Positions 1 to 31,485 of a DNA stretch of 59,989 bases are shown one piece after another. Both the position numbers and the translations under genes were made by a program. Under the pieces are notes generated by a model. That model saw only the letters and a program-made list of their open reading frames with translations, was not told the origin of the DNA and did not search any database. The stretch comes from Nemertoderma westbladi. Taxonomy: Eukaryota > Animalia > Xenacoelomorpha. The stretch is from the NCBI GenBank assembly GCA_032718475.1, contig JAUCBJ010000755.1:1-59989 (forward strand), written 5' to 3'. Each line of letters starts with the position of its first letter. The stretch's first letter is position 1.

Positions 1-1386
1 CCCAGAACTTTAGGTGACCCATCTAAATCACATGTCATGTACCAGTACACATATGGAGATCCCATCATTGTAGAGGACGTGGTTGATGACTTTGAAAGTA
101 ACGGCTTCAATCCTGATGACCTTGTTGCCAGAGGGAAAGTTAAAGAAAGAGAACTTAAGTGGTGGGGTAGATTCTTTTGGATATTGTCATGGAAAGCTAA
201 GATACTGATAACTCTGTACAATAACTTAATCAAAAGGAATATATTGAAGATAAACAGGATCATAACATATGGAAAGACAGAATCAGAAATAGATAGAGAC
301 ACTTCAGAGTTCGCAAAACTAGCAGGACAAGAAGGTAAAGAATTGTTCCTAGTTTCAGTCCATTTGGACTTGTCCAGCTGGAATGAGTTAATGAGAGCTA
401 TATTGACCAGCGAGATAGGCAGACAATTTGACAAGTTATTTGGATATAAATCGTACGCTTCGAAGTTGTTTACTTTTTTCCAGACGGCAAAAAAACTATC
501 AGCAGCTCAGTTGGCAAACTTAGCCCCAGCAGATCTATTGGGGGATGGCGAGCCAAAGAGTCTGGGAAATTGGAAATTTCATGAAGGGGGTGGACAGGGG
601 ATTCTCCAATCCATATGGACATACATCACTGTTTTAACAATAGATGCTGCTAAAGACGTACTAGATGCTCCTCTCCTTCACAACGGACAGGGAGACAACC
701 AGAGGATAATGATAAAATTTATGGTTAGTAAAAACCCGTTTTTAGCTAATGATGACAAATTACAATGTATGAAGAAAGTCGATTCATTTGTCAAAGACCT
801 TAAACTAAGATTTGCAAGAATAGGGCAAAAATTAAAACCAGAAGAAACGTTCGTTTCAACTTCCGTTTCAGTTTATGGGAAAGCAACCTTATACAAAGGC
901 GCTAAACTTAATATGCTCATGAAGAAGGTTGGTTCTATAAGAGATTATGGTGATGTTATGGAATTCTCTGCCTCCGCACTTACTGGAGCCGTCATAGCCA
1001 ATGTGGACGCTGCCACTGCCCAAACGTCTCTTGGGGTCACCCCCAGGTTCTTTTACCATTACTACATGAGAAGGATAATGGATCTGATCTCAGACAAGCA
1101 TCCAATGTTTCCTAACGGAGGATTGGTGGATTCCGTCAATCGACTAAAAAAAGTGTCATTGCAGGGAGCTTCGAAATTCTATCACTTTGACCTAAAATCT
1201 AATTTGGAATCACTAACAGTGGATGAACTCCGATGTGCTCTGAAAACAGTTGTCCCCTTCATTGGATCTTTGTATGGTATTCCAAATCAATCCTATACTT
1301 CCTCAATTATCAGGAACTTTCCGGATGCTCTTGGAACCTCAATGTACTTCCTTTTAAGCTCCTCTCAGATACCTCAGTTCCATTAA
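1..1386 (+). pseudogene. L: Endogenous viral element: Mononegavirales-like L protein, RdRp domain (frame open from position 1, so 5'-incomplete)
   Basis: Pre-motif A KERELKWWGRFF, motif A DLSSWNELMR, motif B EGGGQGILQSIWT, motif C GQGDNQ, then LKPEETFVSTSVSVYGK and RNFPD; no introns. Confidence 0.95.
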
Positions 1387-4300
1387 TAAGCAAGACCATA
1401 ATCCATTTACGCGGATTGATACCAGCCATATTCAAACCCCACATGATGCCTGAAGTTCATTCAAGAATGCTCATTTTAGATCCTGAATGTATAAACTCTT
1501 GGAAAGTTAACTCGATAGAGGGCTTTGTTCAAAACGAGTCCATGAGTTATCTCAGAAGCAACAAAGATAAAGTAAAACCCTCCTTATTAATAGATGCACT
1601 AGAGTACAACCCAGACTCAACCATGCGAGATCTGGCTGATGAATTGGTCAGTTTTAAACCATGTTTTCCCCGTGCGTTGAAGTTAATAACGAATGTGGCA
1701 ATTCCAGACTTGATTTTGAAATTTATAAGAAGGATAGCCAGTTGCAAAACACTGGTAGATATAGCCAGAATGACTAGGGGAGATAATGTCTATGACAAGT
1801 TAAGAACCAGAGAATCTTATATAACAGGTATAATATTCGAATCCATAGAAAATATTCCAGATGAAGTAGAAGTAGAACATGAAGACGATCCTTCTGAATC
1901 CAGCTCTGAATTACTCCAAAGACTGAGAGCTTCTTCTTTTAGATTAGATGTTGAGGATCTATTGGGGGTAACCACTCCAGACCCACAAGAACAATTTGAT
2001 TTGTTTGAAGTTTCTGGTAATGGTTGTCCTAAATGTCCAAAAATTGAATCCCATGAGAAGTCTATGTACATATGGGGATCAGTAGCTGCAAAAGGAAAGA
2101 CTTTAAGAGATCTTGTCTCCACCAAAGGACCATATCCCCATTATTTGGGATATGTTGTACATAGCAAGACTGTCAAGGCCAAATTCGAAAAACATGAACA
2201 GTTGGAAATTATAGGAGATGTTGTGGCGGTTATGAAACTCATAGGCCCTGTGTACCCAGAAGACTCATCGGTTGGTAAATTGATTTTGGGCTTGGTCTCT
2301 CAACTAATAGAGGATGTTCCTGGATTAATGGAAGTCCTATCCAACAAGTTCGCAGGAAATCCTGTCCATCGAGTGGACGACCCTCATAATCGCAGGGGAG
2401 GTCAGAACAACCTTAACATCAACTTCACTTCCCATGTCACAACTAGCTCAAATCCAATGAGTCACTCAGCTCGAGGAGGGGAAGATTACAACATCAACTA
2501 CCCGGCTACATTCTTAATGATGACTGATGAAATTCTAGATGATTTGATAAAGAAAACAGATGATCCCGACAAGCCTTTCACTCATGACTTCCATTACCAT
2601 TATCACCCTAAGGAGAAGGCTTTGGTTCCTCTACCCACGGTTGTGACCCCAACTGACTGTGATCCCGACCAGGCTGCCAGGATAGTAAAGATTCTGGACA
2701 ACATCAAGCCTCTAACTCAGAGAAAAGTTAAAGCTACTGAATATCTCAGATCAGTGTTACCTCCGGTTCTATACAATGTAGAGATTGAATATAATGACTT
2801 AACACCCATGGACCAATGGCATTCAGTTAGTTTCACACTAGGAGTGCTAAATGGACTATGGTCAACTCAAGTACTTAGACACGGGACAGATAATTGTGCG
2901 GGAGAGGCAGGGGGAAAACTCACTATAGGAGCATCCTTCAAAATACAACCCTACTATTACTTGATCGGGTTATTAGGGACTATTGTTGTGGATCTGGAAG
3001 CATCATCTTCCAAATCCAGGTGGTCAAAGGCTTGGGAGGAATTTTCATTGGAATTAAAGGAGCACATACTTCGGAAAAGTAATTACTCTGAGTCTTCCTT
3101 TCTACTGATGTTTGAAAACCAAATAAGACGCATATCAGAAATGTTACCAAACTTTTCTCCTCCCAAGACTCCACTGATGGGGTCTAATGATGGGCACGAA
3201 ATGATACAACAGGCTCTAACAAGTATAGTATCTAGCGTTGGATCTTATTCTAAGCTTGGGAATCTGATCAATAAGCGAATCATAAGATTTAATCAAGTTC
3301 AGTTAGGAGGAGGCTTATTCTTTCTGAGATTTGGGTTCGTCTCTCTGTGCCATTGGGATCAATACAAAGACAACCAAAAATTCCTTACTTCTAGAATCTT
3401 GTCGGAAGGTTGCCCAGGATTCAACCAGAGCTCATCCACATGCATGTGGACAGAATCAGAAGTCTTAGAGCATACGTGCGCTCGAATCTTTTCAGATCCG
3501 GTGATATCTAAGGAACTGCCAATAAATGCTATAAGGGGATTCATAGGGACTGATTCTCTAATAGATTCTCTAATGTCAGATGTTACTGTGATTCCTCCGC
3601 AGTCCCAAAGTCAAGCTCATTATTCACCACCTCCATTCCCTGAACTAAATAACTTCTTGTCTACCTGCATAGATATTACGAATGAGAAAGATATAACCAC
3701 TAGAAGGAAAGACATAGGATCTAACAAAACCACAGATAACTTGGGAAGTATCAACAGATTCAAGTACGACATGGAAAACACGAGAGTTTGGGTGGATAAG
3801 TTAGTCTGTCCCACGAGCAGCTATATGAAATTTGACGACATACTGAATATGCCAGAGTTAGTTAAAGTTTGTAGATCATTTAATAGTGTAGTCGTTTCTT
3901 CCTACGGAGACGGCATGGGGGGAGTGTTCTTTTATGTAGCAGCTAGATTTCACTCCAAATTCCTCATGGGTCGCCTGTCAACTCTAGCATTGGCTCATGA
4001 TTTTCCTAGACAAATGGGTTGTGAAATTAACTTTACCGGACTTAAAATGTGTGCCGAGAGGCTCAATTGGAGAGAAATGAGAAAGTTATTGGAACTCAGT
4101 GAGAAAATGCTCCGACTTAATGGTGGAGATATAGTCAATCCCGGAGTGACAGCATCCCAGGAAGCATCGTTTGATTGTACGAGTGACTTGGAAATACTAA
4201 CTTTGGATGCTGACTTGAAAGATCTTCATTGGGGATCTTCAGGAGGATGGTTTCAGAGAGTCCTTGTGGAAGTATCAAGCATAAGAAAGTCGAAAAATTA

Positions 4301-5210
4301 CTTAGTAATAAATAAAGTTTACAAGGAAGAAGGAGAATTGTTTTTTAGATTAGTAACTAGTGTCAATGACTCATATTTCTCTAGCTCAGTCGTGTCGCAT
4401 TTAGTGAAGCCTATCTCTTCAAACGGAGGGAGCCAAGAGTATTACAATGTCACGTTGGTGCCTCTCTTGGTGTTAGACTCCTTTGTATCATGGCTAGAGG
4501 AAAACTTCAACTTTCTCCATTTACCTAGCACTGATAATATTAATAGCCTAGTCCAGCACAACATAAGAGTATCTATTCTTAGTAAGCAAAGATACATCCC
4601 ATTTCGTGAAAGAGCTAAAAGAGTCAGAGATTGGTACTCCCTGTATCTAACTCCAATTTTAGGTCATCCTGAAACCATAGCAGCACAAGGGCTGTTTTCA
4701 TTTGCAGAAGGATGGCAATTGGAAGAACTGTCGATATTGGCTGCTAAACAGGAGCCTAAAAGTATCATAAGGAAAACAGTCACCCGTCCAACTGGTCGTT
4801 CTATTATGACAGATGCCAAGGCTTTCAGATATGCATTCTTATTGCTTAAAGGGATGCTCCCCAATGCAAAAGAGGATGTCTTGGAATTTTTGATAACCAA
4901 AGTAGTGGTTGAAGGGGGATTAATCTTCTTCAAAGGAAAACAACTTGACAAGAAACCCCAAAAATATGTCCTACCTATCTTCTCGAAACCTTGTTGGAAT
5001 GAGCACTTGTCATCATCGATAATAGGTCCTGTGTCTTCCACCTTCTTCTTTCGTATTGACCCTGACAGGATTCTAGATAAGACTATGAAGCTCTCGAGAA
5101 GAGAAATAGGGGAATGTTCACCTCCTGATGGATCTACATGGGTTGTACATCCGGTGGATATTAGGGTTATCAAAGTGCCAATCCACCAAATTAGTAATGG
5201 AATATTATAA
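1350..5210 (+). pseudogene. L: L protein C-terminal part (PRNTase capping domain, connector, methyltransferase, CTD), after a frameshift near 1350-1380
   Basis: ORF 1233..5210: GPYPHYLG, GNPVHR (HR motif), DYNINY, MTase motif YGDGMGG with a K-D-K-E-like tetrad (YMKF, DAD, NKV, SQEYY). Confidence 0.92.
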
Positions 5211-5217
5211 AGAAAAA
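5205..5217 (+). terminator. Putative viral gene-end/polyadenylation signal overlapping the L stop codon
   Basis: TTATAAAGAAAAA, similar to TAAGAAAAA-type gene-end signals of mononegaviruses. Confidence 0.55.
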
Positions 5218-5323
5218 TCACTAACTATATCTGTCTTGCGAGATATCAAATCAACCTCCGACCAGTTAGAACAACTTAAAGGCTTGTTTATAAGATACCT
5301 ACTGGAGAATTACAATGAGACAT

Positions 5324-5700
5324 TGTAAAGTAAAATGGTGGATAATAGGGTGTTAGTCTACTCGCAGGTAGCCCCGCCATAATCTGATTTAATCTCCTTG
5401 CCTTCACCTTCCTGCAAATGAAACACCTAGAAATAATTTGTCTACATAGAATTTGTAGATTGTTAATGTGATACGATTCACGTAATTTGATAAGCATTTG
5501 ATTGTAACTCGCATGAAATAATGCTAGGTGTGTACTGAGTATTAAATCACGAACTATGATATGTGACTTATCAATAATGATAGGGTAGGCTGAGTCATAT
5601 GAAATTGGAGCTTTACAAATGCGGCTACCAACCCGTAATAAACCATCTCCTGAAATAAATGGGCACAATTTAGAAATATTACTAGAATGTTCAATGTTGA
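5324..5700 (-). mobile_element. BEL/Pao LTR retrotransposon pol fragment (integrase HHCC zinc-binding region)
   Basis: SSNISKLCPFISGDGLLRVGSR...PIII...H...H...CFICRK...IMAGLPASRL...PPFYFT; homology stops just before the expected GxD of the catalytic core; clearly diverged from the element at 20497-28641. Confidence 0.9.
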
Positions 5701-6679
5701 TCTTTTAAAAATGGATCGCCATGCTCACACACAAGATTTTTTTAACTTTTTTTACTCCTTTAACATACTTGTTAACATACGCGCTAGACCTTTACCGGAC
5801 TCGTTTTATGGGATCAAAGATCACCCTTATTACGTCAATTTAACCCAATATTACATGGTAAAACCGGAAGATCCTACCCATAGTCTGAGGTTTCTACCAC
5901 TAATAAATCCTCTCGATCTTGTCGAACTCGAACAACTGCAGAAACATCTGGATCAGTTAGTTAAAGTAAACTCATTTCGAAAACCATATAATGTTTCCAG
6001 AATAGAGAAAGAAATAATACCTCCGTATAATCTTGATGGATTCATCAAAACTCGATTAGTACACTGGAATCTTGACGTGTTATTCGAGGAGGAAAGAATA
6101 CAACGATATGGAGATGTGGAAACATATACTACCCAATACTTAAAGTATAGAGATCTACCTAATGCTAGCGAATGCGCTACCTTGTGGCATCCAGTGGGAA
6201 TGACTCTCGAAAACGCCACTAAAGAGTGGAATGAGACTCTTAACGTTATCGAGATGTATGGAGTTGTCACTTACGATAACGAAGGTAGCGTTCCTGTTGG
6301 AGAACTGGGAACTACGCGAATGATACACATACGAGGACTCGCTGGTTCTACCCACGTATTTACTCGAGCGTGTTCCGATGTGATTGATTATTCTTTTGAG
6401 ACTCTTACGGAGACACAAAAGAAACTCCGACATGGACAATTCGAACTCGCGCAGCGTTACGTCACCGACACCGAGCGCAAACCAGCCATGGGTATCGATG
6501 GATCGATGTTACCCCAGCCCGTGCTCGAGATGCTGTTTAACGAAAGAATCCTTAAAATCGGCTCAGCTGTTTATGGAGACCTCCAAAACGACTTTCGGAA
6601 CATGGAAAACATTCCAATAGGGAAACGTCCAATAGAAGACACTAAAATAACCAAAGAAAGTGACGACAGTGTTCTGTGA
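5687..6679 (+). CDS. Intronless ORF with a C-terminal, truncated DEDDy 3'-5' exonuclease-like domain (WRN/EXD2/RNase D-like)
   Basis: ExoI-like VVTYDNEG; LPQPVLEMLFNERILKIGSAVYGDL resembles the ExoII region; no ExoIII YxxxD before the stop. Confidence 0.6.
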   Translation: MFNVDLLKMDRHAHTQDFFNFFYSFNILVNIRARPLPDSFYGIKDHPYYVNLTQYYMVKPEDPTHSLRFLPLINPLDLVELEQLQKHLDQLVKVNSFRKPYNVSRIEKEIIPPYNLDGFIKTRLVHWNLDVLFEEERIQRYGDVETYTTQYLKYRDLPNASECATLWHPVGMTLENATKEWNETLNVIEMYGVVTYDNEGSVPVGELGTTRMIHIRGLAGSTHVFTRACSDVIDYSFETLTETQKKLRHGQFELAQRYVTDTERKPAMGIDGSMLPQPVLEMLFNERILKIGSAVYGDLQNDFRNMENIPIGKRPIEDTKITKESDDSVL

Positions 6680-6930
6680 AACTGAACGGACACAGACGGT
6701 GAATAAGTTTGCTTCAGTCGACTATAGTCAGGATGGATTAATGATTTATCACATCCAAGCAGGAGATAACTTCCAATAAAATGTAAATGTATAATTAATA
6801 CTGTGTACCTGTTGATAAATTTCACTTATATTCGATATAGTACATGATTAAAATGTATAAATGAGTATCCATAAAATCCTTTCTTCACATATCAAACGCT
6901 AATAAGTTGACATCATGTAACAAAATGACA

Positions 6931-7071
6931 TACATCATTGCTTGCAAAGGTCACTTTTCAGCGTTAAAGACCATTGTTTATTGATGTAAACCTCCCTCGC
7001 TGCGCTCGCTCGGTACATAAATAAACTCGGGTCATAACGCTGCAAAGTGCTACTTTGCACACAATGATGTA
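6931..7071. repeat. Imperfect palindromic MITE-like element
   Basis: Arms of about 42 bp (tacatcattgcttgcaaagg...aagacc / ggtcataacgctgcaaag...caatgatgta) around a central cctcgctgcgctcgctcgg. Confidence 0.65.
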
Positions 7072-8199
7072 AATAGTTATTAGATTTAATTAATACGGGA
7101 TAAAATTCACATTATATTTAATAGGCCTATACATAATTGTTACATTAGGGTAAGAGGCAAAACGTCTACATTTATGTCTCCAATATTTGAATTACTGGTG
7201 GGGGATGGAATTCGTAGGGGTCGTAAGATGTATTTAGGCTAGTCTATAAACTAATCCCCCACCAATGACAAAATGTTGATAATGAAGTGTATAGTACGTG
7301 AAATAGTGATAAGTTATCCTTCCTAGAGGTACCGAACGGTCATACATTATTTCTTAAAAAAGCATAAACTTTAATCGCTTGTCAGTGAGAATTTATTAAA
7401 ACCTGTTGTTATTTACAGTATTGTTATTTACAATTTAACATATTTTGTTTGCACAAGTTTCGATCTTCAAACGGCTGAGACATCCAAATAGTGGCGCAAA
7501 TTGACCATTAGTGAAAAGGTATTGTTTAATGTTTTGGGTAGAAAACACCGCCACTAATGTTTGAAATTTAAATAAATTCATTTTTTAAATCATCTAAAAA
7601 ACACATATTTTGTATTTCCGGTCACTTTGCGCCATTAACTCGAGAAATCACATCCGCGTTTTTGACTGTCGGTCATAAGTGATAATAATTATCTATAACG
7701 AAAGCCTTAAAATCGTCTAAAAACTACTTATTGTACAACTCATAATCAGAAATTACACAAAAGTGAATTGTATGCGTTATTGTAGATATATATATTTTTT
7801 AAAATATCTGCAGTCGGACTGGCCCCAGGGGTGGTGGAAACACGTCCGCCTCGTGGGTGTGCTTCCGGGAGGAGCCCAGAAGGACGAAAGCGGTGATGCA
7901 GATAGATCGACAGTAGACGACCCAAGAAGGAGGACTCGCGATTCTACCGATGTCACACCATGTGCATTGCCAGTACCGCGAACGGAAATACCGGAAGTCA
8001 TAGCGCGTGGCGACAGTAGAACCGAAGACTTCCTTACCATCCCGTAAACCAGATCGCGGGAACTGGACATGGTAAGTTTGGCTGGAAGCCATGAGAACAA
8101 TATTAGGAGTATAGGAGGACACATAACTCGATTACCCCAGATTACTTGAAATATCGGAGAAGGTTTTCGCATTATGCGCGAGTTAACTGCCCCGATTGA

Positions 8200-8237
8200 C
8201 CCCCCCCCCCCCCCCCCCCTGGGTTTAATAGGGTTAA
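8200..8237. mobile_element. Possible piggyBac-like element terminus
   Basis: C20 tract then tgggtttaataGGG-TTAA; no partner end recognised. Confidence 0.3.
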
Positions 8238-8330
8238 GTCATTTTTAAGGCAGGAGCTACAATACCAGAAAATAACTCATATCAAAGATGAAGATTTGAA
8301 GTAAAAAGTTACCTATACAAAGTCAACTTA

Positions 8331-8777
8331 ATGTTAGTCAACTTAATGGCGGAAAATCTTATAATTATGATTGGTGATGATTGTGGCAGTACATCTAAAA
8401 ATGTCATTGTTTTTCCATGTGAAGATGTAATTATGGAAACACTCCATTGTGAACATAATATTGAACCATTGATTAGGCCTATAGATGAGTCATTTGGAAC
8501 ACAACACCAGCCAAGATATAAATTTCAAACAAACCAATCTGTGGCTGTCATCTGGGATGAAACCAATAATACTAAACAATGGTAAATTTGTTTTTATATT
8601 GATGAAAACGAAAATGGTTCTATTCGTGTTGATCATTTAACTCGATCAGCTGCTTCTCATGACTGTTGGCAATGGCCAAAGGTTGATGACATCCAAGATG
8701 TTATTGATCTTCAAGTATTACCAGTTGTTATAGATGGTTTCTGGAACTTAAAAAGCATAAAATTAGAAATTTCATAG
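8331..8777 (+). pseudogene. Degraded coding remnant, probably from a DNA transposon protein
   Basis: Protein-like frame continues past the TAA at 8583-8585: VAVIWDE..W*..VDHLTR..WQWPKVDDIQDV..QVLPVVIDGFW. Confidence 0.35.
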
Positions 8778-9254
8778 AAATTGAAAATGTTTTTAGAGAA
8801 ATCTGTTGAAATATTTCAATGCTGTTGTTTTTTTCTAAAAGAAGTTTGTAAGCCCTGATTTCAATAAAGAAGGTCCTCTAAAGCTTTCAAAAGTTTTTTT
8901 CCATTTTTCAACAACTTACTATCTATAAGCTCTGCAATACAAAGACTTCCAGGGACCAGGATATATGATCAACCAAATAAGACTCCTTCACATCTGTATT
9001 ATCAAGACTAACTAACAATTGGCCAAATTAATCGATTATACCTGCAGGGTGAAGCTGGGTTTTGAAAAAACATATTACTAAGGTTGCGTGCAATGCTTTA
9101 TTTGTGTAATATTTGTTAAATGAATTATTAATTATTAATATTAACTTTATAATCTACTATATATATCTACTTTAACTAAATAAATTATTAAAAACACTCC
9201 CACGTATTATAATCTGCGGTACTGCTACTGCTACTGCAGTACTGCGGTATAAAC

Positions 9255-10097
9255 GTGTACCTGTCTGCATGTCTGCATGTGTACTGCTACATGGCCAAAG
9301 AAAGAAACTATTATCGTTGCCTAGGTGTAACGCCGGAACTAGTGAATGAGATGTCGGATGATGAGGCTCCTGTGACAATTGGCGCACTGCGCCAACTCAC
9401 GAAAACTAGGCTACGCACGATTACGAAAGATAAACTCATTGAGATAATCTCGGGAGATGATTCTTTGCCGGCAACTCGATCCGATATAGTGGATGTACTT
9501 AAGCTTAACAATGATGTAATTATTGAAGCAGTAAAAAGGGAAATCATGTCGGATGTTGAAAAAATCGTAGATAATGCCAAGGATGACATGAGACAGGAAC
9601 TCGATGATAAACTCTCTGATATGCAAACCAAGGTACCAGTACATATTATGGCCTTTGGAGCTAAGTTCGAGGTTGGCGAGGATACGCTCAAGGTGGCAAA
9701 ATCAATTGTCTCGACTACTGGCTACACAGGAGATTGTGTTATTAGCGCACAACGTGTAGGTGCAATGGCAAATCCACCAATCCGCATCCAGATTAAGAAA
9801 AGTGAAGATGCTACCGCTATACTAAAGGTGCGAACGAAGCTCCGCGGATCGGCATTCAAGTCAGTGTACTTGAATCCGGAAAAGAGCAAGGATCGACTTC
9901 TGATGGAAGCGAACTTCAGAAAGCTCATTGGTAGGGACAATCAGGAGCAGTTGTCTATGTCTCCAAACAGTAGACTGGTGGATAAAAGGGTCGTCGGAAC
10001 CATGCGTAACCAGGGGCAACAATCAGGACCAACCGGCGATGGACGAGGAGGTGGACGCAGCTGCGGGGCCCGCGGTGGACCTAATGTTCAGAATTAG
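9255..10097 (+). CDS. Non-LTR retrotransposon ORF1
   Basis: Coiled-coil segment, then RVG..PPIRI..LRGSAFKSVYLNPE (LINE ORF1 RRM/CTD-like); lies directly upstream of an APE-RT ORF. Confidence 0.75.
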   Translation: MYLSACLHVYCYMAKERNYYRCLGVTPELVNEMSDDEAPVTIGALRQLTKTRLRTITKDKLIEIISGDDSLPATRSDIVDVLKLNNDVIIEAVKREIMSDVEKIVDNAKDDMRQELDDKLSDMQTKVPVHIMAFGAKFEVGEDTLKVAKSIVSTTGYTGDCVISAQRVGAMANPPIRIQIKKSEDATAILKVRTKLRGSAFKSVYLNPEKSKDRLLMEANFRKLIGRDNQEQLSMSPNSRLVDKRVVGTMRNQGQQSGPTGDGRGGGRSCGARGGPNVQN

Positions 10098-12200
10098 GAC
10101 TGCGGCCTCCAGCCGAACATTAGTGAAACTCTACGACTCGGCAGCTGGAACTGCAATGGATGGACGACAGCAAACTCAAACTTACGTGAAACAATCATAT
10201 CCGGTATAAATCCGGACATATTAGTTATGTGTGAAACTTTCCACAACAGGTCGGATGATCTCGCCTTCAGGGAGTTCGTCTGGTTTGGAAATGCACGACA
10301 AACTGTGAACAAGCGTGCAAAACGGGGATCGGGTGGAGTCGGTTTCTTCGTAAATAGATCTTTGCTCAAAAACTATAAAGTTTCGGTTGTTGATACTTCT
10401 CCCGAGGGAATAATATGTGCAATATTTAGGTCTCTAGATACGGATCACTCTATGTTGCTTTGTGGGTGTTACCTGCCACCTGAGTCGTCTGTTTATGGAC
10501 GTGATTCCATCGACTTCTACGCCCATTTACTATCCCAGATTTATCTGTACGGTAACTCGGTGGAGCAAGTTATAGTTCTAGGAGATCTAAACGGAAGAAC
10601 CGGGAATCTAGCTGACACTGTGTTTGATTTAGACCCTGACATTCCTACCCGCTCAAACGTGGATAGTGTGACAAATTCACATGGTAAAGCTCTCGCTGAC
10701 AGCTGATTTTGCACTGACAGCTGCATGTTTATTGCTAACGGTAGAATCCCAGCCGGGCAGTACGGTAGTAATGATGATTTCACTTTAGTAAATGTAAGAG
10801 GGAAATCTGTAGTTGATTATGCACTTGTATCTACAGAAAACTACTCAGATTGCGAGTCATTTTCAGTTTTAGCCAGTACTGATTTAGCGATAAAACATAA
10901 TTGTGTTGAACTCTGTACTGATAGTTGCAGATTACCCATCATTCACTAATACTGCTAGAAATACGCACTCATACCTTAGATAATTATAATGAACGTGGTA
11001 CAAATCTAGGAACTTGGATGGGGGATAATACTGAATCTAAGTTCGACACATATATTCCAAGAAAATACACTTTTTCTAGGCATGCTATACCTACTGATAC
11101 TTTAAATAGTCAAATCTCTTGGGGTGCGATTAATAAATTGTGCGATAACATTATAGTAGCTAGGGGGGAACAAGATACAATTGATCACTTATACACCACT
11201 ATTAGCAAAACTATTTCTAGGGAATTGGAAGTTTATGTTAAACAACAAAACTCTTCTAGCCCCCGAGTTAGAAAGCAGTTTAAATATAAAAAACCTTACT
11301 GGGATGCCGAGTTAACGGCACTCTGGAAGATTTTTCATCAAAAAGAACGTGATTTTCGAAAATGTACTCATGTTAACACCAATTATAAATCTGTACACTC
11401 GGAATTTTTATTAGCGCGTAAAGAATTTGATAAAACATTACGCCGTAAACGTAGAAAGTACCAAACTGATCAGGCCAATAATATTGAAAAATTAAGTTCA
11501 TCCGGTCAAAAAGATTTCTGGGATTGTTTAAATAAACTAGGACCTCGGAAAAATGTAGACATACCATTGGAAGTACATAGGAGTACTGGTGAAATTATTA
11601 ATAATATTCCTGATGTAATTAATGCTTGGAAGGACGATTTTTCTACGTTACTTAACCGAGCCGACTCGGGTAAAGCTGACACAGACTTTATTGAGCGAGC
11701 TTTGGGGCAGAAAACTGAACTCGAGTGGTTTATGGAAAGTTGTTCGTTTGAGACTGACAGTCCGCTTAATGTTCCGTTCACAGCGGATGAAGTACAATCA
11801 GCCGTTAATAAGCTAAAATACGGTAAAGCAGTTGGTTTTGACGGTTTGCCTAATGAATTCCTTAAATTACCTGGACTGTGTAACTTACTTGTTGAACTCT
11901 TCAATTATATTTTTGATACTGGCAAAATTCCGTCGGTTTGGCAGCAGGCTCTTATTAGACCATTTTATAAGGGTAACAGCACAAGTGTTAACGTACCATT
12001 AAATTACAGAGGAATTAGTCTTCTACCGTGCATAAGTAAGTTATTCACTTCTATATTGGATGTTCGTTTATCCAAATTTTGTGAAGTTGATGAATTATTG
12101 TCTAACGAGCAGAATGGTTTTAGAAAAAATCGTAGTTGCTTAGAACACATCTATACAATACATTCCATTACTTCTATTAGGAGAACAAATGGGTCTTCTA
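10098..12200 (+). pseudogene. LINE ORF2 (APE endonuclease plus start of RT), disrupted and 3'-truncated; clade uncertain (RTEX/L2-like)
   Basis: SWNCNG, MCET, GSGGVG, CYLPP, GDLNGR, VVDY; KAVGFDGLP, NYRGISLL, EQNGFRKNRS; stop at 10704-10706, frameshift near 10930. Confidence 0.9.
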
Positions 12201-12201
12201 C

Positions 12202-12490
12202 TTTAGTGTCTGGTTGGAGATGTGTGCATTGTACTTGACACAATGAACCCGGCGTAGCATTCTTGTGAATGTGCCATCCAGGGATTTGGTGTCCTCAGCA
12301 GTTAGAGCCCAGCATGGACTCCCATAGAGGAGTACTGCAACTACTGCTGCTCTAAATAATCGTACCTTAAATTTCTGATTAATTCTCGGTGACTTCCAAA
12401 TCCTGGAAAGCCTATTCAACGCTGCCCATGCCTTTCCCTTACGTATTCGAAGGTCCTCACCTGACTTCCGGATCCATGATCCCAGGTAAC
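12202..12490 (-). mobile_element. RTE-like LINE internal fragment
   Basis: Near-identical reverse complement of about 59315-59600 (LNRLSRIWKSP...LLYGSPCW). Confidence 0.9.
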
Positions 12491-12494
12491 ATAA

Positions 12495-14978
12495 GTCTAT
12501 AGATAGATAGATTTATTTATACATTATGTAAAAACAATAACAAATACACCAAACAATGTACCGGTATAAAGGTATTGTCCAACATAACATATAGGATTAC
12601 CCCTAAAGCTTTGCAGCTTATTTCCAAGGGGGTCCTTTATGTTACTTGGTTACAAATACAATATTACACTACGCTAACCTAAAACCAATATAAAACGTAA
12701 TTACACTATGTACATGTACAACTTTACCGAGAGCGTGACAATGCCCGACTCAACGATAAAGATGTAATGTACAGAACAATTTATTATAAAACGTAATTAC
12801 AGTATAAATAGTAAATAATTAATAAACTAATATCTTACTGTAGGACTATTGTACCTATTTTTACATTGCACACGGAGATGAGATTTAACTGCAGATTTAA
12901 AAGAATGTCGATTATTTAGGTTTTTAATTTCATTAGGCAGAGCGTTCCAATTTTTTATGCCGTTAAAAAAGAAAGTATCAGATTCAAAGGATTTACAATT
13001 CGGGAGGTAGAAGTTTGAAGCACTAGCTCTGGTACTGTAAGAGTGTGTATCGCGTACTCTGTTGAATTTTTGTTTTAGGTAATTGGGACATTTACCATTA
13101 TACACTTTATGCACATGGTTAAGGCGTAGCTGCTTAACTCAACTATCTAAGTTAAGTAGTCCAGATTCAGAAAAGTCATCTGGAGTTAGGTGGTGCCTAG
13201 GTTTGTAGTCTTTAATAAATCGTACTACTTTATTCTGAGCTACTTGTAATTTACATTTAAGCTGTTTGGTTAAGCCTTCATACCAAGAAGAGCACGCATA
13301 GTCCATGTGACACTGTATTAAAGAAGAGCAAAGTAACTTGCGGGAGTCGGTGTTCAAACTATTTTTATTTCTGTATAGAAACCTAAGCCTACTGTTAACT
13401 TTCGAGAAAATATTTTTCACTGTACTTTCTCCTGATAAGCAGTTATCCAATGTGGCGCCTAAATATTTAACTTCCTTTTTATTTTCAATCTTATGTCCAT
13501 TACTAGTGACTTCAAACTTAGTTACCTTCTTTAACTTTCTTTTGGAACCAAACAAAATACTTTCAGTTTTACCGTAGTGAATGGATAGCTTATTATCAAC
13601 CAACCACTCATTACAGGATTCTAGAACTGCACTTAACTTTTGGGAAATATGGATAGGATCTTTATGAGAGAAAATAAGAGCACTGTCGTCGGCATATAAA
13701 ATGAGTTTAAAATCGGGATCTATACTACTTATCATATCATTTACATAGCATACAAAAAGCAGAGGACCTAATATACTACCTTGCGGTACACCACAGGTAA
13801 TCTCTTGTACAGTAGACAGCGATTTGCTAATGACTACAGTTTGACCTCTGTCTGACAGGTAGGACTTGAACCAGTCTATAGAACCTACACCCATCAGGCC
13901 TAACTTACCAAGCAGAATTTCGTGATCTACAGTATCGAAAGCCTTTTGTAGGTCCAACATTACCATACCAGTATATAAACCCTTTGCGTTATTACATCTA
14001 ATTGTATCAGTTAAGTTAATAAGGCAGGTGTCTGTAGAATATGATTTACGAAAACCGGACTGAAGTTCATAGATCAGATTTAGCCTACTAAGATGTGCCT
14101 CCAGCTGTAGAAAAACAGAACGTTCTAGAATTTTAGATACAATACTTAAGATACTAACAGGTCTGTAATTACAGGGTTCTACTTTACTATTCTTTTTATA
14201 CAGAGGAACAACCTTAGCTAATTTCAGTTCGTCTGGTACTACATTATCTACGATAGAGTAATTAATAATAAAAGTAATAGGCACTTTAAGTACTTCAGCA
14301 CCATCCTTAAGAAAACGGGCAGGTATTAGATCTAGACCGGTACTTTTTGAGGCTGATAGGCTAAGTAGATTTTTAAAAACAAATCCTCAGAAACGGGTTT
14401 TAAAAATAACTTTTCTGAATTTTGTAACTTTTCTAAATAAAAATTATTTAGAGTTTCGGACCCTATACTATATTTATTACTTGATAACGGTAATTTCTTA
14501 ACTAAATTAGAGGCAACGTTAGTAAAATAATTATTAAATAAATTACTAACTAGAGTATGATCATGAATCAGCTCACCGTTATCTTGCAGAACAATATTCG
14601 ATTTAGATTTAAGGTTTTTATAACCTAAAGATTTTAGGGTAGACCATAGACTTTTAGGATTATCTTTATTCTCACTTATTTTGTTGTACAAATATTCAGA
14701 TTTAGCTTTTTTTATTTCCCGTTGGACAAGGTTTCTATATTTGCAGTAATTATTATAATCAGCTAAAACACGGTATTTCCTAAATTTATACAAATAGTTA
14801 TCTCTTTCTCTGATATTACTAAGAATACCCGAGGTCATCCAGGGCTCAGTGCGTTGTTTAAGACTAATTTCTTTAATTGGTGCTACAGTATTAAGTGCCT
14901 TTAAAAATATATCTTTAAAAACAGTGTACGCAAGGTTAATGTCAGCGGCCTTAAAACAGGGTTCCCAGTCAGAATTAA
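12495..14978 (-). mobile_element. 5'-truncated CR1/L2-group LINE with 3' UTR and (ATCT)n tail
   Basis: RT ORF 13139..14284 ([38 protein letters not shown]), with adjacent pieces 14332..14994 and 12827..13114; ends AATAAA-(ATCT)n on the minus strand. Confidence 0.92.
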
Positions 14979-15581
14979 CAGTCAGGGAAAACATCCCCGT
15001 GGGGATATGTGAAATTTAGGCTTAATTTCTCAACCTATCCTAGTCAGGATAGATGACATATCCCCACCAGGATAGATGGCACATTTTCCATTTTTTCGGT
15101 TTGCGCAAAAATTGGTTGGATGGCTATGTATTTCTTCGGTATTACAATGATCAATAGGTTACAAAAATTGTAAAATTTCACGCCCTTGTCATTGGTAAGA
15201 TTTATAAGAAGATTATAGGGGTTTTAAATTCACATTGATTTCTATCCTGCTGGGGATATTATCGACATATCCCCAGCAGGATATGTTTTATTTATATCCT
15301 GGTGGGGATATTTTGGATATATCCACAGTAGGATATGTTATAGAATAATATGTGTGTTTCCTATTCAGCATATCCTATTCAGGATATGCTAGGCAGTTGC
15401 TGGTGTGGGTGTTTCTACTGTATAGGATTTTGAGGGTGAAAGACATTTGATTTATCTGTCAGTAATTGTTAGGCAAATTATTACGAAACTGCAGTCTGAA
15501 TACTGGTAGGGCTACCGGTACTTATTAGACCCTATTACGATAGTTTGTTCTGTACCAGAATAATTCTGATTATTAATTATT

Positions 15582-16031
15582 TTGATAATGGCTTCCGGTG
15601 CGGTAAATATAGGGCCTAAAGAACCACGGAAGGGCCGTGTTGAAACTTGCTTCTGTTCCAATTTATCCGATCTATGCTCAACTGAAACTAGTGAAAATTT
15701 TTACACGAGGAATAAAATTTTCGAACTTCTTCTTTGGGTCCAAAATCCCAAAAGCTATGTTGGACCATTACATACCAGGGAGTCTATGGTAATGAATTAT
15801 GTAGATTCGTCCAAGTTTGGTGTCATGGTTAGAGCTGCCACTTCGCCTGCAGCATCTTACCCCACTCAACAGACAATCATACAGGCATCTTCTGTAGACT
15901 TCCCTGAAGTGTCGCCGTCTAAAGATATATGTATTGCGATAGATAACTTTCAATTTGTAGGCAAAACCTACCGCCTTTTCAATAAGGGTGTACCAATAAG
16001 CAAGGTTTGCTCAGTGATCAGCATACCTTAA
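15582..16031 (+). pseudogene. Possible transposase remnant inside the TIR element
   Basis: 149-aa ORF with IAIDNFQFVGKT; position inside the TIRs. Confidence 0.35.
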
Positions 16032-16454
16032 TTGTCAGGATTTATTAATTCAAAGGCACCCAATTCAGTCTGTCAGTTCATTGACCTAACTGGATTGGAT
16101 GTAGCCGAATGAGTGGAGGCCTTTATTGAAATTGAATTGATTGTAACATTGTTTATGTTACATTTAACATAACGTAACTATATTTAAATTATATAATATT
16201 AAGTCTGTACTGGTGTCAAAATATATAATGCAACTATCAGACTATCCCCAAAGGCATAATAATTAAAGAACCCAAAAATAAAGTAAACTGAAACTAAAGG
16301 TGTAGGCCTACTAAGGATTGAACTAAGTTGTCCCTTCTTCTTCCAACGGAAGTTGTGGAGGGCACTCCCCTTCGCCTTCAGTAATGACTGGGGGTGATAA
16401 ACCCGTTTCTTTCTAGCGCTAGCAGTGGCTGATGATTCATCTGGCTGTAGTTCG

Positions 16455-17110
16455 TGTTGTCCACTTACTCCATCTATCTCTGACATCATCTGTCCATCCA
16501 CTCCATCTACCCCCAGCACCTCCTGTCCATCCACTCCATCTACCTCCGATATCGCCTCTCCACTCACTCCATCTATCTCCGACATCCCCTGTCCACCCAC
16601 TCCATCTACCTCCAACATTCCTACACCTCCTGTCCATCCACTCCATCTACCTCCGATATCGCCTCTCCACTAACTCCATCTATCTCCGACATCCCCTGTC
16701 CACCCAATTTCATCTACCTCCAACATATCCTCTCCATCCACTCCATCTACTTCCGATATCGCCTCTCTACCCACTCCATCTATCTCCGACATCCCCTCTC
16801 CACCCACTCCATCTACTTCCAACACCTCCTGTCCATCCACTCCATCTACCTCCGATATCGCCACTCCACCCACTCCATCTATCTCCAACATCCCCTGTCC
16901 ACCCACTCCATCTACCTCCAACACCTCCTGTCTGCCTGTCCACCCACTCCATCTATCTCCGATATCGACTCTCCACCAACCAGCCAACTCCATCTCTCTC
17001 CGACATCACCTGTCCACCCACTCCATCTACCTCCAACACCTCCTGTCCACCCACTCCATCTACCTCCGATATCGCCTCTCCACCCACTCCAACATCCCCT
17101 GTCCATCTAT
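16455..17110. repeat. 36 bp C-rich minisatellite with 108 bp higher-order trimer
   Basis: Recurring cactccatcta(c/t)ctcc core; three alternating unit types. Confidence 0.85.
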
Positions 17111-17168
17111 ATCCATCTATCCAGTTAAGTTCAATCAGTCAATTTGTCTGAAGTTTAGTATGTTTACT

Positions 17169-17420
17169 GTATATACAGTTATAGTTCATATCCGTACCTC
17201 TGGTATTTTCGTATTGCAAAAATAAGACTATACGTATGAAATACCCTATGTTATTTTGAGATATTGTTTATTGTTTTGGTTAGAAAAGCCCACCACTGTA
17301 ACCTGCTCCTTTCCGTTAATTAAGTAATGGAGATTAGTTTATTGTTTTGGTTAGAAAACACCACCACTGTAACCTGCTTCTTTTGCCAGAGGTACGCATA
17401 TGAACGATAACCGTATATAC
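17169..17420. mobile_element. MITE with about 35 bp TIRs, Tc1/mariner-like TA context
   Basis: gtatatacagttatagttcatatccgtacctctgg / ccagaggtacgcatatgaacgataaccgtatatac (3 mismatches); internal ~40 bp direct repeat. Confidence 0.7.
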
Positions 17421-18104
17421 TGTACAACTCTACTGTAGACAGATATACCGGTATCAGTGTACTGTACAGACTGAGTTGTTGAGGGACTACCAGACTACAG
17501 GTCTACCCTTCAGTCAGCCAGGTACCGAAGTAGACTACCTATTATACCGGTTGTTATATTACTTTCGCACAGAAGGCAATACAGCATTAAGGCTACCAAC
17601 TAACATCTACGTGTACGGTACGTGTAAGCTTAGAGGCAATCCTTCTGGGGATATGCCACAAAACTTACATAAAACAAGCTACTGGCTGACTGGCAGACTG
17701 GTACATTATTCTAAAACATAGGCCTATCCTAAGACTGAAGATGTCCAAAATATCCCCACCAGGATATAAATAAACATGAATGAACTTTATCGTGAAACAT
17801 ATCCCGCTGGGGATATGTTGATAATATCCCCAGCAGGATAGAAATCAATGTGAATTTAAAACCCCTATAATCTTCTTATAAATCTTGCCAATGACAAGGG
17901 CGTGAAATTTTACAATTTTTGTAGCCTATTGATCATTGTAATACCGAAGAAATACATAGCCATCCAACCAATTTTTGCGCAAACCGGAAAAATGGAAAAT
18001 GTGCCATCTATCCTGGTGGGGATATGTCATCTATCCTCACTAGGATAGGTTGAGAAATTAAGCCTAAATTTGACATATCCCCACCGGGATGTTTTCCCTG
18101 ACTG

Positions 18105-18608
18105 CATGGGCATGTTAACAGAAAACAACAACTTCAATGGGATTCCATCTGTCCATCAATGTATATTTACATTTACCGTATGTGTTAGGCTTGTTAGCCG
18201 CTAATTCAGTGATTACAGAATTACAACAAAGGAATGAATAAGTTGCATGTCCAATCAGAGTTTCAAAATAATTAATAACAAAATTAATGTAAATCAAGGA
18301 TTAATAAGTAGATAAGTGTATGTTACGGCCGGTACTGCACTTTTGCGTTTTTTATACAGATTGGCCTCAACCGGAAGTTCCGACATTTTTAGTTATGACG
18401 CGGACATCTGCCATAAGGGTAATGCAATCAGTAGTAAAGCAATAGCTGATTGGCTTCCTGCCTTAGCAACTGCCTATCGCTTATTGGACGATTGTATCAG
18501 CATAAATTAGCATAAATGTGTGAGGGATGTTTGAATTTACATACTGTACAGTGTAATCTAAATATCTTTTTTAAAAAATGTGGGCCCGTCAATAATATAA
18601 TTTTATAC
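18105..18608 (-). repeat. Direct repeat copy 1; candidate 3' LTR remnant of the BEL/Pao element
   Basis: Highly similar to 30995-31485; left side cut by the TIR element. Confidence 0.6.
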
Positions 18609-19555: not shown

Positions 19556-19825
19556 CTATCCTCGTTTCAGTTCCTTCGACACGGTCTTAAGTAGTAGAAG
19601 ACCACCTGTGATTGGACCTGCATTCAAGTACCTCCTGATCTTCTGCGCTTTTATGATCGCGATCGCACAGCGGAGATCCTTGTTGGTCAGCTGTAGATTC
19701 TCGTCTGGTTGGCTTGAGCGATATCCCATAGTATCGAGGTGATAGTCAAAATGATTCCCATAGGGAACCTCGTGCGGATTTCCCAAAACATCGTACGCGA
19801 TTCTCGTTTCATCTTGGGAATCCAT
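19556..19825 (-). CDS. Small ORF downstream of BEL pol, function unknown
   Basis: 89 aa, ATG start, same strand as pol, coding-like composition. Confidence 0.3.
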   Translation of the reverse strand: MDSQDETRIAYDVLGNPHEVPYGNHFDYHLDTMGYRSSQPDENLQLTNKDLRCAIAIIKAQKIRRYLNAGPITGGLLLLKTVSKELKRG

Positions 19826-20496: not shown

Positions 20497-23400
20497 TTAG
20501 GATGCTTGCGGAGGACTCCTGGGAGACTTGTAGTCTCCAGTCCTGTGCCGCGCTTCCTCTAGTAGCACTAACCTTTGCACTGGCCTATCTACTTTGCGGT
20601 TATCAATAGTCCTTACTGTTACAGTCCTGATCACGCCGTCTGGTGAAGGGTGTGCTTTCTGGATTACTCCCGTCATCCAGAACCTACGTTTAAGGTTTGC
20701 TTCTGCTAAGAGCACGTGGTCACCCTGTTGGAGATTACGAGTTTGCTGGTACCACTTAGTCCTGGCAGAGATAGAGGGCAAATAATGATCTTGCCATATC
20801 TCCCAGAACTTACACGCCAACAGTTGCGTCACCTTCCAGGCCTTGCGACAATAAAGGTCTCGGTCGTCAGGTATGGACGTTGGCAATAGTGACGTAGGTG
20901 ACTGCATGAGTAGATGGTTTGGAGTCAGTGGGAACTGGTTATCTCCGTCGTCGGGAACGAGTGCGATGGGTCTAGTATTTAAAATGGACTCTATCTCGAC
21001 AAACAAGGTGGTCAGTTCATCGTCTGTTAATACTCTGTTAACTGGCAAGGTCTTAGTCATTGTTGTTTTGACTGATCGGATCAGTCTCTCCCAAACCCCA
21101 CCCCTCCATGGACTGGCTGGAACGTTGAAGTTCCATTCAATCCGCCGGGGTTGGAGTTCTTTAGAGATCTGATCACGGTCTAGTCCATCCAAAGCTCGTG
21201 TGATCTCATTTCGTCCTCCTACAAAGTTCGTCCCACAGTCTGAGTGGAAAGTCTTTACGAGTCCGCGTCTAGCTATAAATCGTCGAAGGGCCAAGATAAA
21301 TGCGTTTGTCGTTAGGTCAGTAACACGCTCAATGTGTATGGCTCGACAGGCCATACACGTAAAGATCAAACCCCACCTTTTTACCATTACTCTACCTCGT
21401 TTGGTGTCGAAAGGACCGAAACAGTCGATTCCTGTCTCGGTGAATGGTGGTTGATATGCCTTTATTCTTGCCACGGGTAATTCGCTCATGATCTGGACAC
21501 CTATCCTGGAATGAACCTTCCGGCACACAATACACCCGCCCATTACTGAGGTTAGAGCCTTACTTGGTCTTATTAGCACAAACCTGTTTCGTAGTTGTGA
21601 GAGGCAGTGATGCCGCCCAGCGTGCTTGAGTTGGAGGTGTGTATCTAATATCATGGCTCGTTGTAACTCTAGCTGTTGTGGAATTATTATAGGGTACCTA
21701 AATGTAGCAGTTAAGTCTGTGGTCTGGAGTCGTGATTTGTGACACAGTAAACCGTGGTGTATGATAGGACTCCAGCTGAGAATGGGTGAGGACTTGATTG
21801 GACGACCCTGGGAGATGGCATTGAACTCACTTGAGAAATATCGCTGTTGGTAGTGGAGAAGAATATTTGTCTCACAGGCGTCCGTCTCTATGGTGGTTAA
21901 TTTCCTTGGGAAGTTACGTTTGCCGCCTAGGTATTGAGTGAAACGGCGTAACCAGGCCGTCTTTCTGCAGGCATCCCTCCAGGAAGCTGTTGTATTTACC
22001 AACTTGTCGTACAGTTGTCGAGTGGCATCATTGGGTGGTTGAGTAGCAATGTTTGGTTTGGAAGGTGAATTAATCAGACCCAAAGGCCTGTTCTGAACAA
22101 GGTTACCTTCTAAAATCTCGCATGTGGCTGAGACCCGCCCGGTATGTCCGTCTGGGTCAACTGGTACTTCTTCCTCCTCGGGTAGTTTACCCCTTTCAAC
22201 GCTATCTCGTGAATCCATCTGTAGTGGAGGTTTAAACTCGTCGATATAGATGGGTGTTACGTGTAGACTTTCGTTTGCAGTAGAAGTTGTTGTTATAGTG
22301 GTTGGTTGTGATGTCGGGATGTTACGTGACCGCAGGGTGATGCATGTTTCCACTTGGGTATTTAGAATACTCCGCTCCAATGGGTTTACCGCAGTGGCTG
22401 GGTCGTTGGTTTTATGGGAGGTTGTTATGAGTGTGCCCGAAGATCCACTTTGGGTGTGTCCTTTCTTTGGTTTGCCAGTCGTCTTTGACTTTGACTTCAC
22501 TTGGGTCACATGTTTAACTTCGGCGTCCTTAGGTAGACTATTTGATTTGGCGTCAAAGAGCGGTGGCCACTGGTCTCTCGGCTTAGTTAGGAAGGCAGGA
22601 CCATATAACCAAAATTTTCTTACCTCTGGGTCGCAGAATTCTGATGGCATCATCCCTCTAGAGGCTATGTCTCCAGGGTTTTGGTCTCCAGGACAGTGTC
22701 GCCAGTCTTCCTTGAGGGAATGATCGAGGATTTCAGCCCTCCGGTTAGCTACAAATGTTTTAAAATTGACTGTCTCACTGTTGAGGTAGAGGAGCACAAG
22801 AGTTGCATCAGTCCAATAGGTCACGTCTAAATTACCATCGAGCTCGCGCTGAATGAGTTTGGAGATATTAATAGCCAGCATTGCTGCTTGAAGTTCTGCC
22901 CGAGGGATGGTCATATATTTCATGGGCATTGTCTTTGCCTTCGAAGTTATAAGTGATGCTTCATAGACGTCTGGTGCCACCTGTCTACGTAGATATGCCA
23001 CTACCCCTAATCCATTCGTACTTGCGTCACTGAAACAGTGCAGTTCGATGTTGAGTGGGTACACTGCTTGTCGAGGGAAATAGACCCGAGGAATGACGTA
23101 GTCGGTGAGGAGTGGGAGCTGGTTCTCCCATTCGTTCCACTGCTTTGCTTGTTCCATGGCTATAGGTTCATCCCAAGTTAGCCCTGCCTGCCAGATGTTG
23201 CGTAAGTAGATGCGGGCTTGTAGTATGACAGGACTAATAAAATTCAAAGGGTCAAACAAGCGGCTCATGGTGGACAAACATATCCGCTTTGTGAGAGGTC
23301 CCGAGTTGGTGTTGACTTTTACGCAGACCCGGAAATTGTCGGAGTTGGGGTCCCATACTAATCCCAGTACCTTTGTCGTTGGCATTGACTCGAACTGCAG

Positions 23401-30994: not shown

Positions 30995-31485
30995 CATGGG
31001 CATATTAACAGAAAACAACAACTTCAATCTGTCCATCAATGTATATTTACATTTACCGTATGTGTTAGGCTTGTTAGCCGCTAATTCAGTGATTACAGAA
31101 TTACAACAAAGGAATGAATAAGTTGCATGTCCAATCAGAGTTTCAAGTTCAGTATACAGTTTATAATAAATCAAGGATTAATAAGTAGATAAGTGTATGT
31201 TACGGCCGGTACTGCACTTTTGCGTTTTTTATATAGATTGGCCTCAACCGGAAGTTCCGACATTTTTAGTTATGACGCGGACATCTGCCATAAAGGTAAT
31301 GCAATCAGTAGTAAAGCAATAGCTGATTGGCTTCCTGCCTTAGCAACTGCCTATCGCTTATTGGACGATTGTATCAGCATAAATTAGCATAAATTTGTGA
31401 GGGATGTTTGAATTTACATACTGTACAGTGTAATCTAAAGATCTTTTTTAAAAAATGTGGGCCCGTCAATAATATAATTTTATAC
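30995..31485 (-). repeat. Direct repeat copy 2; candidate 5' LTR remnant
   Basis: Matches 18105-18608; right side abuts the 19 bp satellite. Confidence 0.6.

Follow-up and report, generated by a model that had tools for sequence, protein, structure and literature searches.

DEDDy exonuclease ORFs borne by transposons are already known, from rotifer retroelements and from two lineages of Dada elements. In bdelloid rotifers, a DEDDy ORF3 has been described in the LTR retrotransposons Juno and Vesta and in the Athena/Terminon retroelements (PMC5408684, PMC6431247, available text), as the earlier note on this locus had also stated for some rotifer retroelements, and the catalytic activity of these proteins had not yet been demonstrated according to the available text of PMC5408684. 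The Dada DNA transposons of Laccaria and Ectocarpus contain a DEDDy domain for which 3'-end processing in transposition has been proposed, not demonstrated (PMC3706591, available text). Among the Crypton elements, the second genes listed in the available text of PMC13465315 are those for a DDE transposase, a C48 peptidase and HTH.

The locus studied here lies in a 59,989-nt stretch of Nemertoderma westbladi DNA (contig JAUCBJ010000755.1; the whole stretch is referred to below as the window) and had been described as an orphan, intronless DEDDy exonuclease-like ORF fused to a chimera of viral and BEL sequence. Our main reading, to which we give a probability of roughly 0.7, is that this ORF is an internal fragment of a multi-copy gene, that the parent gene likely codes for a 3'-5' exonuclease of the DEDDy type and likely belongs to a mobile element, and that the fragment itself is predicted to be inactive. 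The features of the locus are as follows.

1-5325 (+): endogenous mononegavirus L-gene remnant, broken, with frames at 1-1383, 1227-5207 and a short 5110-5325 (candidate L); PF00946, E 9e-39; PF14318, E 4e-20
5303-5704 (-): BEL/Pao integrase (H2C2) fragment; Integrase_H2C2, E 2.5e-6; low depth like the L remnant
5654-6679 (+): open frame, first ATG at 5687, second ATG at 5711
5687-6679 (+): the ORF as called, 330 aa, made up of a borrowed start, a family fragment and a read-through tail
5705-5769 (no strand): T-rich linker, GC 0.29, low depth, containing the second ATG; its 9 nt at 5760-5768 duplicate 5772-5780
5770-6616 (+): piece A, high-copy coding fragment; copies have other sequence before 5770 and after 6606/6616
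5774-6226 (+): conserved N-terminal part, at least 150 aa before the candidate nuclease, without family match; 12 of 14 listed differences synonymous
6209-6382 (+): candidate ExoI region (helix, Asp/Glu strand and two more strands), placed by alignments and the two-block profile
6383-6495 (+): insert of some 38 aa separating ExoI from ExoII, common to the family, no indel listed
6500-6616 (+): candidate ExoII region, identified by the shuffle test, with Asp at 6578-6580; the listed difference in the Asp codon is synonymous
6613-6621 (no strand): A/B junction, loose ends lying behind 6606/6616 and ahead of 6622; the 8 nt at 6613-6620 are repeated at 6628-6635
6622-6930 (+): piece B, multi-copy; a likely coding tail, in another phase than the ORF, reaches to about 6702 and is followed by sequence rich in AT and in indels, with AATAAA at 6775
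6931-7079 (no strand): piece C, imperfect 141-nt hairpin (6931-7071); copies enter varied flanks near 7062-7078
7850-8200 (+): decayed BEL gag N-terminal fragment (tblastn E 1e-4), multi-copy, about tenfold less deep than piece A

The ORF was confirmed at its coordinates and is intronless. The motifs were present as previously described, i.e., YDNE at 6272-6283 (with the ExoI Asp and Glu codons at 6275-6277 and 6281-6283) and KIGSAVYGD, the codon of whose last residue ends at 6580, with an insert between them and no ExoIII Tyr-x3-Asp before the stop, the window copy leaving the family sequence at 6616. PolA exonuclease domains have an insert at the same place, between ExoI and ExoII. An intron acceptor in the T-rich stretch before 5790 was considered but discarded, since both the low depth and the family boundary at 5770 identify this stretch as junction sequence.

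The abundance of the locus was analyzed in public sequencing runs, five of the seven listed containing all or some of the stretch. Of these five, four are labelled organism A and come from three studies; X1 and X2 are one sample, possibly the source of the assembly, and X5, guessed to be RNA, labelled as another organism and with a small share, was left out for expression or range. The summed contig depth over 5798-6595 was 184,411-414,593 in X1, compared with 288-660 over the virus/BEL sequence at 5000-5683, and 78,101-210,794 in X3, compared with 120-308 over the virus/BEL pieces. Single X3 unitigs reached depths of 5,206 and 4,932, compared with 29.5 for an exact flank contig, and relatives of piece A that were 80-99% alike were present on thousands of contigs from the three studies of organism A. 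These data point to a piece A family of hundreds of copies or more, depth itself not being a copy number. The ORF is therefore not an orphan, since 5770-6616 is high-copy with diverged copies.

The differences between copies indicated that this family is coding. Among the 40 differences listed, the best supported of 249, 29 fall within 5774-6616, and 26 of these 29 are synonymous in the frame of the ORF (binomial p 4e-10 versus 0.33), compared with 2 of 29 in each of the other plus frames. The minus-strand frame 6615 was rejected as the coding frame, its 20 synonymous differences out of 29 being as expected for the mirror frame. The synonymous bias was also observed within the insert (5/6 listed differences), and no indel was listed inside piece A. 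Because 26/29 listed differences are synonymous, we conclude that the protein encoded by the family is under purifying selection. At 6400, 6484, 6533 and 6580 the window differs from almost every other copy, and since all four changes are synonymous, the window copy itself appears to have undergone little decay.

Although the window copy is little decayed in sequence, it is incomplete. At 5770 and at 6606/6616 the copies part from the sequence of the window, which identifies the window ORF as an internal fragment; its two ATGs are borrowed junction sequence, and its final 20 codons are read-through. The claim that the ORF begins at the edge of the BEL homology was thus right as far as the BEL similarity is concerned, which reaches 5686 (tblastn with the window's own BEL protein, E 4e-14; the frame is open to 5704), but this edge is not the gene's own start, family similarity being found only from 5770. 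The linker is covered in runs of two studies, with depths at 5690-5731 of 127 (X2), 193 (X3) and 0 (X4 and X5); in X4 the virus, the linker and most of the BEL piece are uncovered, from which nothing can be concluded. Nearby sequence was found duplicated at both junctions (9 nt, 5760/5772; 8 nt, 6613/6628). Short junction duplications of nearby sequence are suggestive of end-joining with templated insertion or of polymerase slippage.

Remote homology of the ORF protein to the DEDD family appears very probable from its motifs and profile scores. The reference set consisted of 23 domains (RNase D, NrnC, PolA and Mollyvirus) kept from 126 matches after a redundancy filter, and the resulting profile is mostly bacterial, since a Mollyvirus-seeded search for eukaryote-like DEDDy proteins found none. 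With an HMM of the 23 domains, the ORF scored 6.8 bits, a value reached by 0/2000 shuffles; without the read-through tail, the score went down to 3.7 bits, which 4/2000 shuffles reached. The score of the ExoII part alone was reached by 0/2000 shuffles, and that of the ExoI part alone by 532 of the 2000, which is not significant. When a two-block profile that tolerates the insert was used, ExoI and ExoII were chosen in order with a score of 18.6 (z 4.8; 0/1000 shuffles), which none of 346 unrelated segments attained, the best of them scoring 8.6; all 23 positives in the leave-one-out control outscored the ORF (37.7-116.7 versus 18.6). In two runs of protein alignment, ExoI was placed correctly in one and misplaced in the other, which was unguided, and the Lys and Asp of ExoII were invariant. 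An HMM match at 'PIEDTK', a position past the family boundary, was taken as chance. The designation of the ORF as DEDDy exonuclease-like therefore stands in that the two motifs, in order, beat the shuffle controls, and it is weakened by the nonsignificant ExoI and by the lack of a match to any exonuclease or other family in Pfam. The assignment to the DEDDy rather than the DEDDh class derives solely from the similarity in ExoI and ExoII, because ExoIII was not seen for intact copies, and the window copy, having no ExoIII with its fourth acidic residue, is predicted to be inactive.

No homolog of the ORF protein was found among PDB sequences, among those of 5.8 billion proteins that were near it in length or shorter, or among 1.84 billion representative proteins, no relative was found when viral and metagenome contigs were searched with it, and tblastn against phages and plasmids gave no match. 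PHROGs gave weak rows only, one of them an exonuclease family at E 0.085, and the N-terminal part of at least 150 aa had no family match in Pfam, PHROGs or PDB sequences. The best matches of the ORF in the ESM Atlas were PF01612 clusters (0.87 with the whole protein as query, 0.90 with residues 170-312), the first of them with 126-138 shared features, which we regard as a lead only. The single-sequence fold model was uninformative (pLDDT 35.5, no fold match). A model seeded with eight DEDDy sequences, and hence partly circular, showed the expected helix-strand order at pLDDT 49.4; the fold comparison that had been proposed as a check gave with this model no Foldseek match at E<=0.001, and its best VIA row was EXD2, with a Z of 6.0, below Z 8 (rmsd 4.5, 95 aligned).

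Downstream of the A/B junction, piece B looks like the tail of a gene followed by a 3' UTR, AATAAA being the putative poly(A) signal; at 6622-6702 the 4/4 listed differences fall on a single codon phase, which is not that of the ORF. The hairpin of piece C gave z values of -7.6 and -7.4, and the centre of its minus strand contains tandem GA/GA and a GCA triloop of the GNA type. A diverged X4 contig over 6689-7018 (33 differences, 21 gaps) joins B to C, and several further joints between B and the hairpin, with differing deletions, were present in other copies. No contig among those listed bridges A and B, and the A:B depth ratio varies by run, B being lower in X2 and X3 and higher in X4. For these two reasons, and because the sequence at 7054-7803 is itself repeated, we only infer that A, B and C belong to one element. 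Piece C need not be the end of that element, since 7054-7803, beyond the hairpin, is repeated in X1 and X3 as well. This repeated unit, represented in X3 by contigs of depth 762 and 712 with 4-6 differences and without X4 cover at 7166-7507, has 18-nt inverted arms at 7489-7506 and 7620-7637. Rfam gave no match in 5200-9200, a search of viral and metagenome contigs for the hairpin motif gave none either, and piece A was not seen in linkage with a recombinase, transposase or RT, the 5' part of the element being missing from the window.

The high copy number, the diverged subfamilies and the purifying selection favour a gene or cargo carried by a mobile element over a retrocopied standard host gene. 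Thus, the earlier suggestion of cargo of a mobile element or virus held for the mobile element and not for a viral or BEL origin, the neighbouring virus and BEL sequences being hundreds-fold less deep. Because of the hairpin end, we tentatively consider a Crypton-type DNA transposon the likeliest carrier. The fuller proposal built on it, of an abundant and recently active hairpin-ended Crypton-type family with its own DEDDy gene and a new N-terminal domain under purifying selection, whose nuclease would trim single-stranded intermediates, is somewhat more speculative. Within our main reading, A, B and C would be the 3' part of one element, the 5' part and an internal stretch having been lost, and in intact elements the exonuclease would trim the 3' ends of single-stranded transposition intermediates, by analogy with Dada and the rotifer retroelements. 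End-joining probably attached the virus-BEL piece to a genomic copy already resident and left the short templated duplications at both junctions. The virus-BEL part itself may have arisen by template switching between virus and LTR RNAs, a process discussed in the available text of bioRxiv 10.1101/127498 and PMC6338049. Provided that the three pieces belong to a single element, a link shown in part, the copy passes the putative poly(A) signal and runs into a terminal hairpin, which points to a genomic DNA copy, and the virus-BEL hybrid would then have been attached to it by repair and not captured with it from RNA; for this reason the idea that the ORF was a third template of the same capture event is disfavoured, and a third RNA template was probably not involved.

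The main competing view of the carrier, which we consider somewhat less likely, is that an LTR or Penelope-like retroelement carried the DEDDy ORF as an additional ORF and that the hairpin is a separate small element inserted into its 3' region; the piece may then have joined the virus-BEL cDNA by template switching. The bdelloid rotifers provide a precedent (PMC5408684, available text), the ORF is intronless, BEL fragments flank the piece on both sides, a small ORF lies downstream in the intact BEL of the window, a lower row of the ESM Atlas search was a rotifer-dominated unnamed cluster (0.85), and virus-LTR hybrids formed by template switching have been discussed (bioRxiv 10.1101/127498, available text). 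Nevertheless, when the position of an ORF3 of the adjacent BEL was considered, piece A was found upstream of the integrase, antisense to it and hundreds of times deeper, and the adjacent low-depth BEL piece is therefore not a carrier in the usual ORF3 sense. Moreover, the gag piece shows the tenfold lower depth given above, nothing in the window's BEL element matches the ORF significantly (best E 0.85), and diverged copies show B joined to the hairpin, all of which argues against the retroelement.

The other explanations appear considerably less probable. An endogenous DNA virus or Polinton-like element present in many copies could have had the ORF as an accessory gene, intronless, multi-copy and far from cellular families, and such domains exist in giant viruses (the Mollyvirus DnaQ-like protein), but this origin is improbable given the absence of relatives in viral contigs, a neighbourhood of A with only a low-depth RNA-virus remnant and no Polinton or other virus gene, and the hairpin with varied flanks close behind. 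Purifying selection would also suit an expanded EXD1/EXD2/Mut-7-like family of host genes to which the ORF belonged, directly or as a retrocopy, and EXD2 was the best structural row, although from a DEDDy-seeded model; a standard EXD gene, however, should match Pfam and the library of 1.84 billion proteins, which the ORF does not, and the depth is hundreds of times that of the flanks, so that we give this possibility little credit. It is likewise quite unlikely that the protein is real but no DEDD nuclease and that its motifs are coincidental: the blank library searches, the uninformative single-sequence model and the weakness of ExoI alone would agree with this, whereas the two ordered motifs surpassed all shuffles and unrelated proteins, and the language-model search independently indicated PF01612.

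The surroundings of the locus are repeat-rich (LINE, BEL and tandem repeats). The BEL piece had depths over 5228-5683 of 288-463 in X1 and 160-308 in X3, and the virus and BEL pieces together (1-5690) had 86-147 per contig in X3, compared with about 30 for an exact flank contig; the virus-BEL chimera may be present in a few copies. A second L-like contig in X1 and X3, with 32 differences over 218 nt, shows that a second related L remnant exists. Further downstream, the window contains a decayed LINE with an ORF1-like frame, endonuclease and RT pieces at 9213-12512 (+), a second LINE at 12827-15015 (-), and, at 14979-18104, a foldback or MITE-like element in which 310-nt inverted repeats, 97% complementary and 2.5 kb apart, surround a 33-nt tandem array. 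An intact BEL/Pao polyprotein of 2712 aa is encoded at 20497-28635 (-), although the 20 largest repeat families, those listed, include no pair of LTRs; behind it, in a GC-richer 3' region, are an 89-aa ORF (19556-19825) and an AATAAA, and on either side of it there is a 99% direct duplication (18143-18589 and 31023-31466, about 12.9 kb apart). Long arrays, built of several different minisatellites and with extreme strand skew, occupy 33200-56100; at 45-51 kb, for instance, the GC skew is close to -0.93.

The copy in the window is no more than a broken passenger, to whose function the virus chimera contributes little. A high-copy family under clear purifying selection suggests that the enzyme matters to the element, and it offers many natural copies for functional tests. 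If the carrier is of the Crypton type, the family would bear on the processing of DNA intermediates by eukaryotic tyrosine-recombinase transposons, and it would represent a recombinase-plus-exonuclease element, a combination absent from the literature searched. What the family may share with Cryptons is a two-gene DNA element (PMC3212892, PMC13465315, available text), but no recombinase was seen here. No Crypton with a DEDDy gene was found in the literature searched, Repbase and subscription papers being outside the search, which included the available text of PMC13465315, PMC3212892 and PMC8869645; the words 'exonuclease' and 'hairpin' do not appear in the available text of PMC13465315, nor 'hairpin' in that of PMC3212892.

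Compared with the cellular DEDDy proteins (EXD2, EXD1, Mut-7/Nibbler, WRN and RNase D; PF01612), the ORF has the same succession of an ExoI D-x-E and an ExoII K-x-G-x5-D, but it is below Pfam detection, multi-copy and, in the window copy, cut before ExoIII. In Dada, the DEDDy domain lies inside the DDE transposase, between the second D and DxxH, and the elements have intron-bearing genes and small-RNA gene targets (PMC3706591, available text), none of which was seen here; the 150 aa before the domain gave no transposase match in Pfam, and 5200-9200 gave no match in the Rfam search mentioned above. The rotifer elements resemble the family in carrying an RNase D-like DEDDy ORF that is mobile-element-borne, divergent from its cellular homologs and proposed to act in 3'-end processing, according to the available text of the papers describing them; they differ in that no RT element is linked to the ORF here, the comparison being one of descriptions and not of sequences. 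The 38-aa insert and the N-terminal domain of at least 150 aa without family match further distinguish the family described here from the rotifer ORFs. Finally, the clear synonymous bias of this family contrasts with the rotifer extra ORFs, for which no significant departure from neutrality is reported in the available text of PMC5408684.
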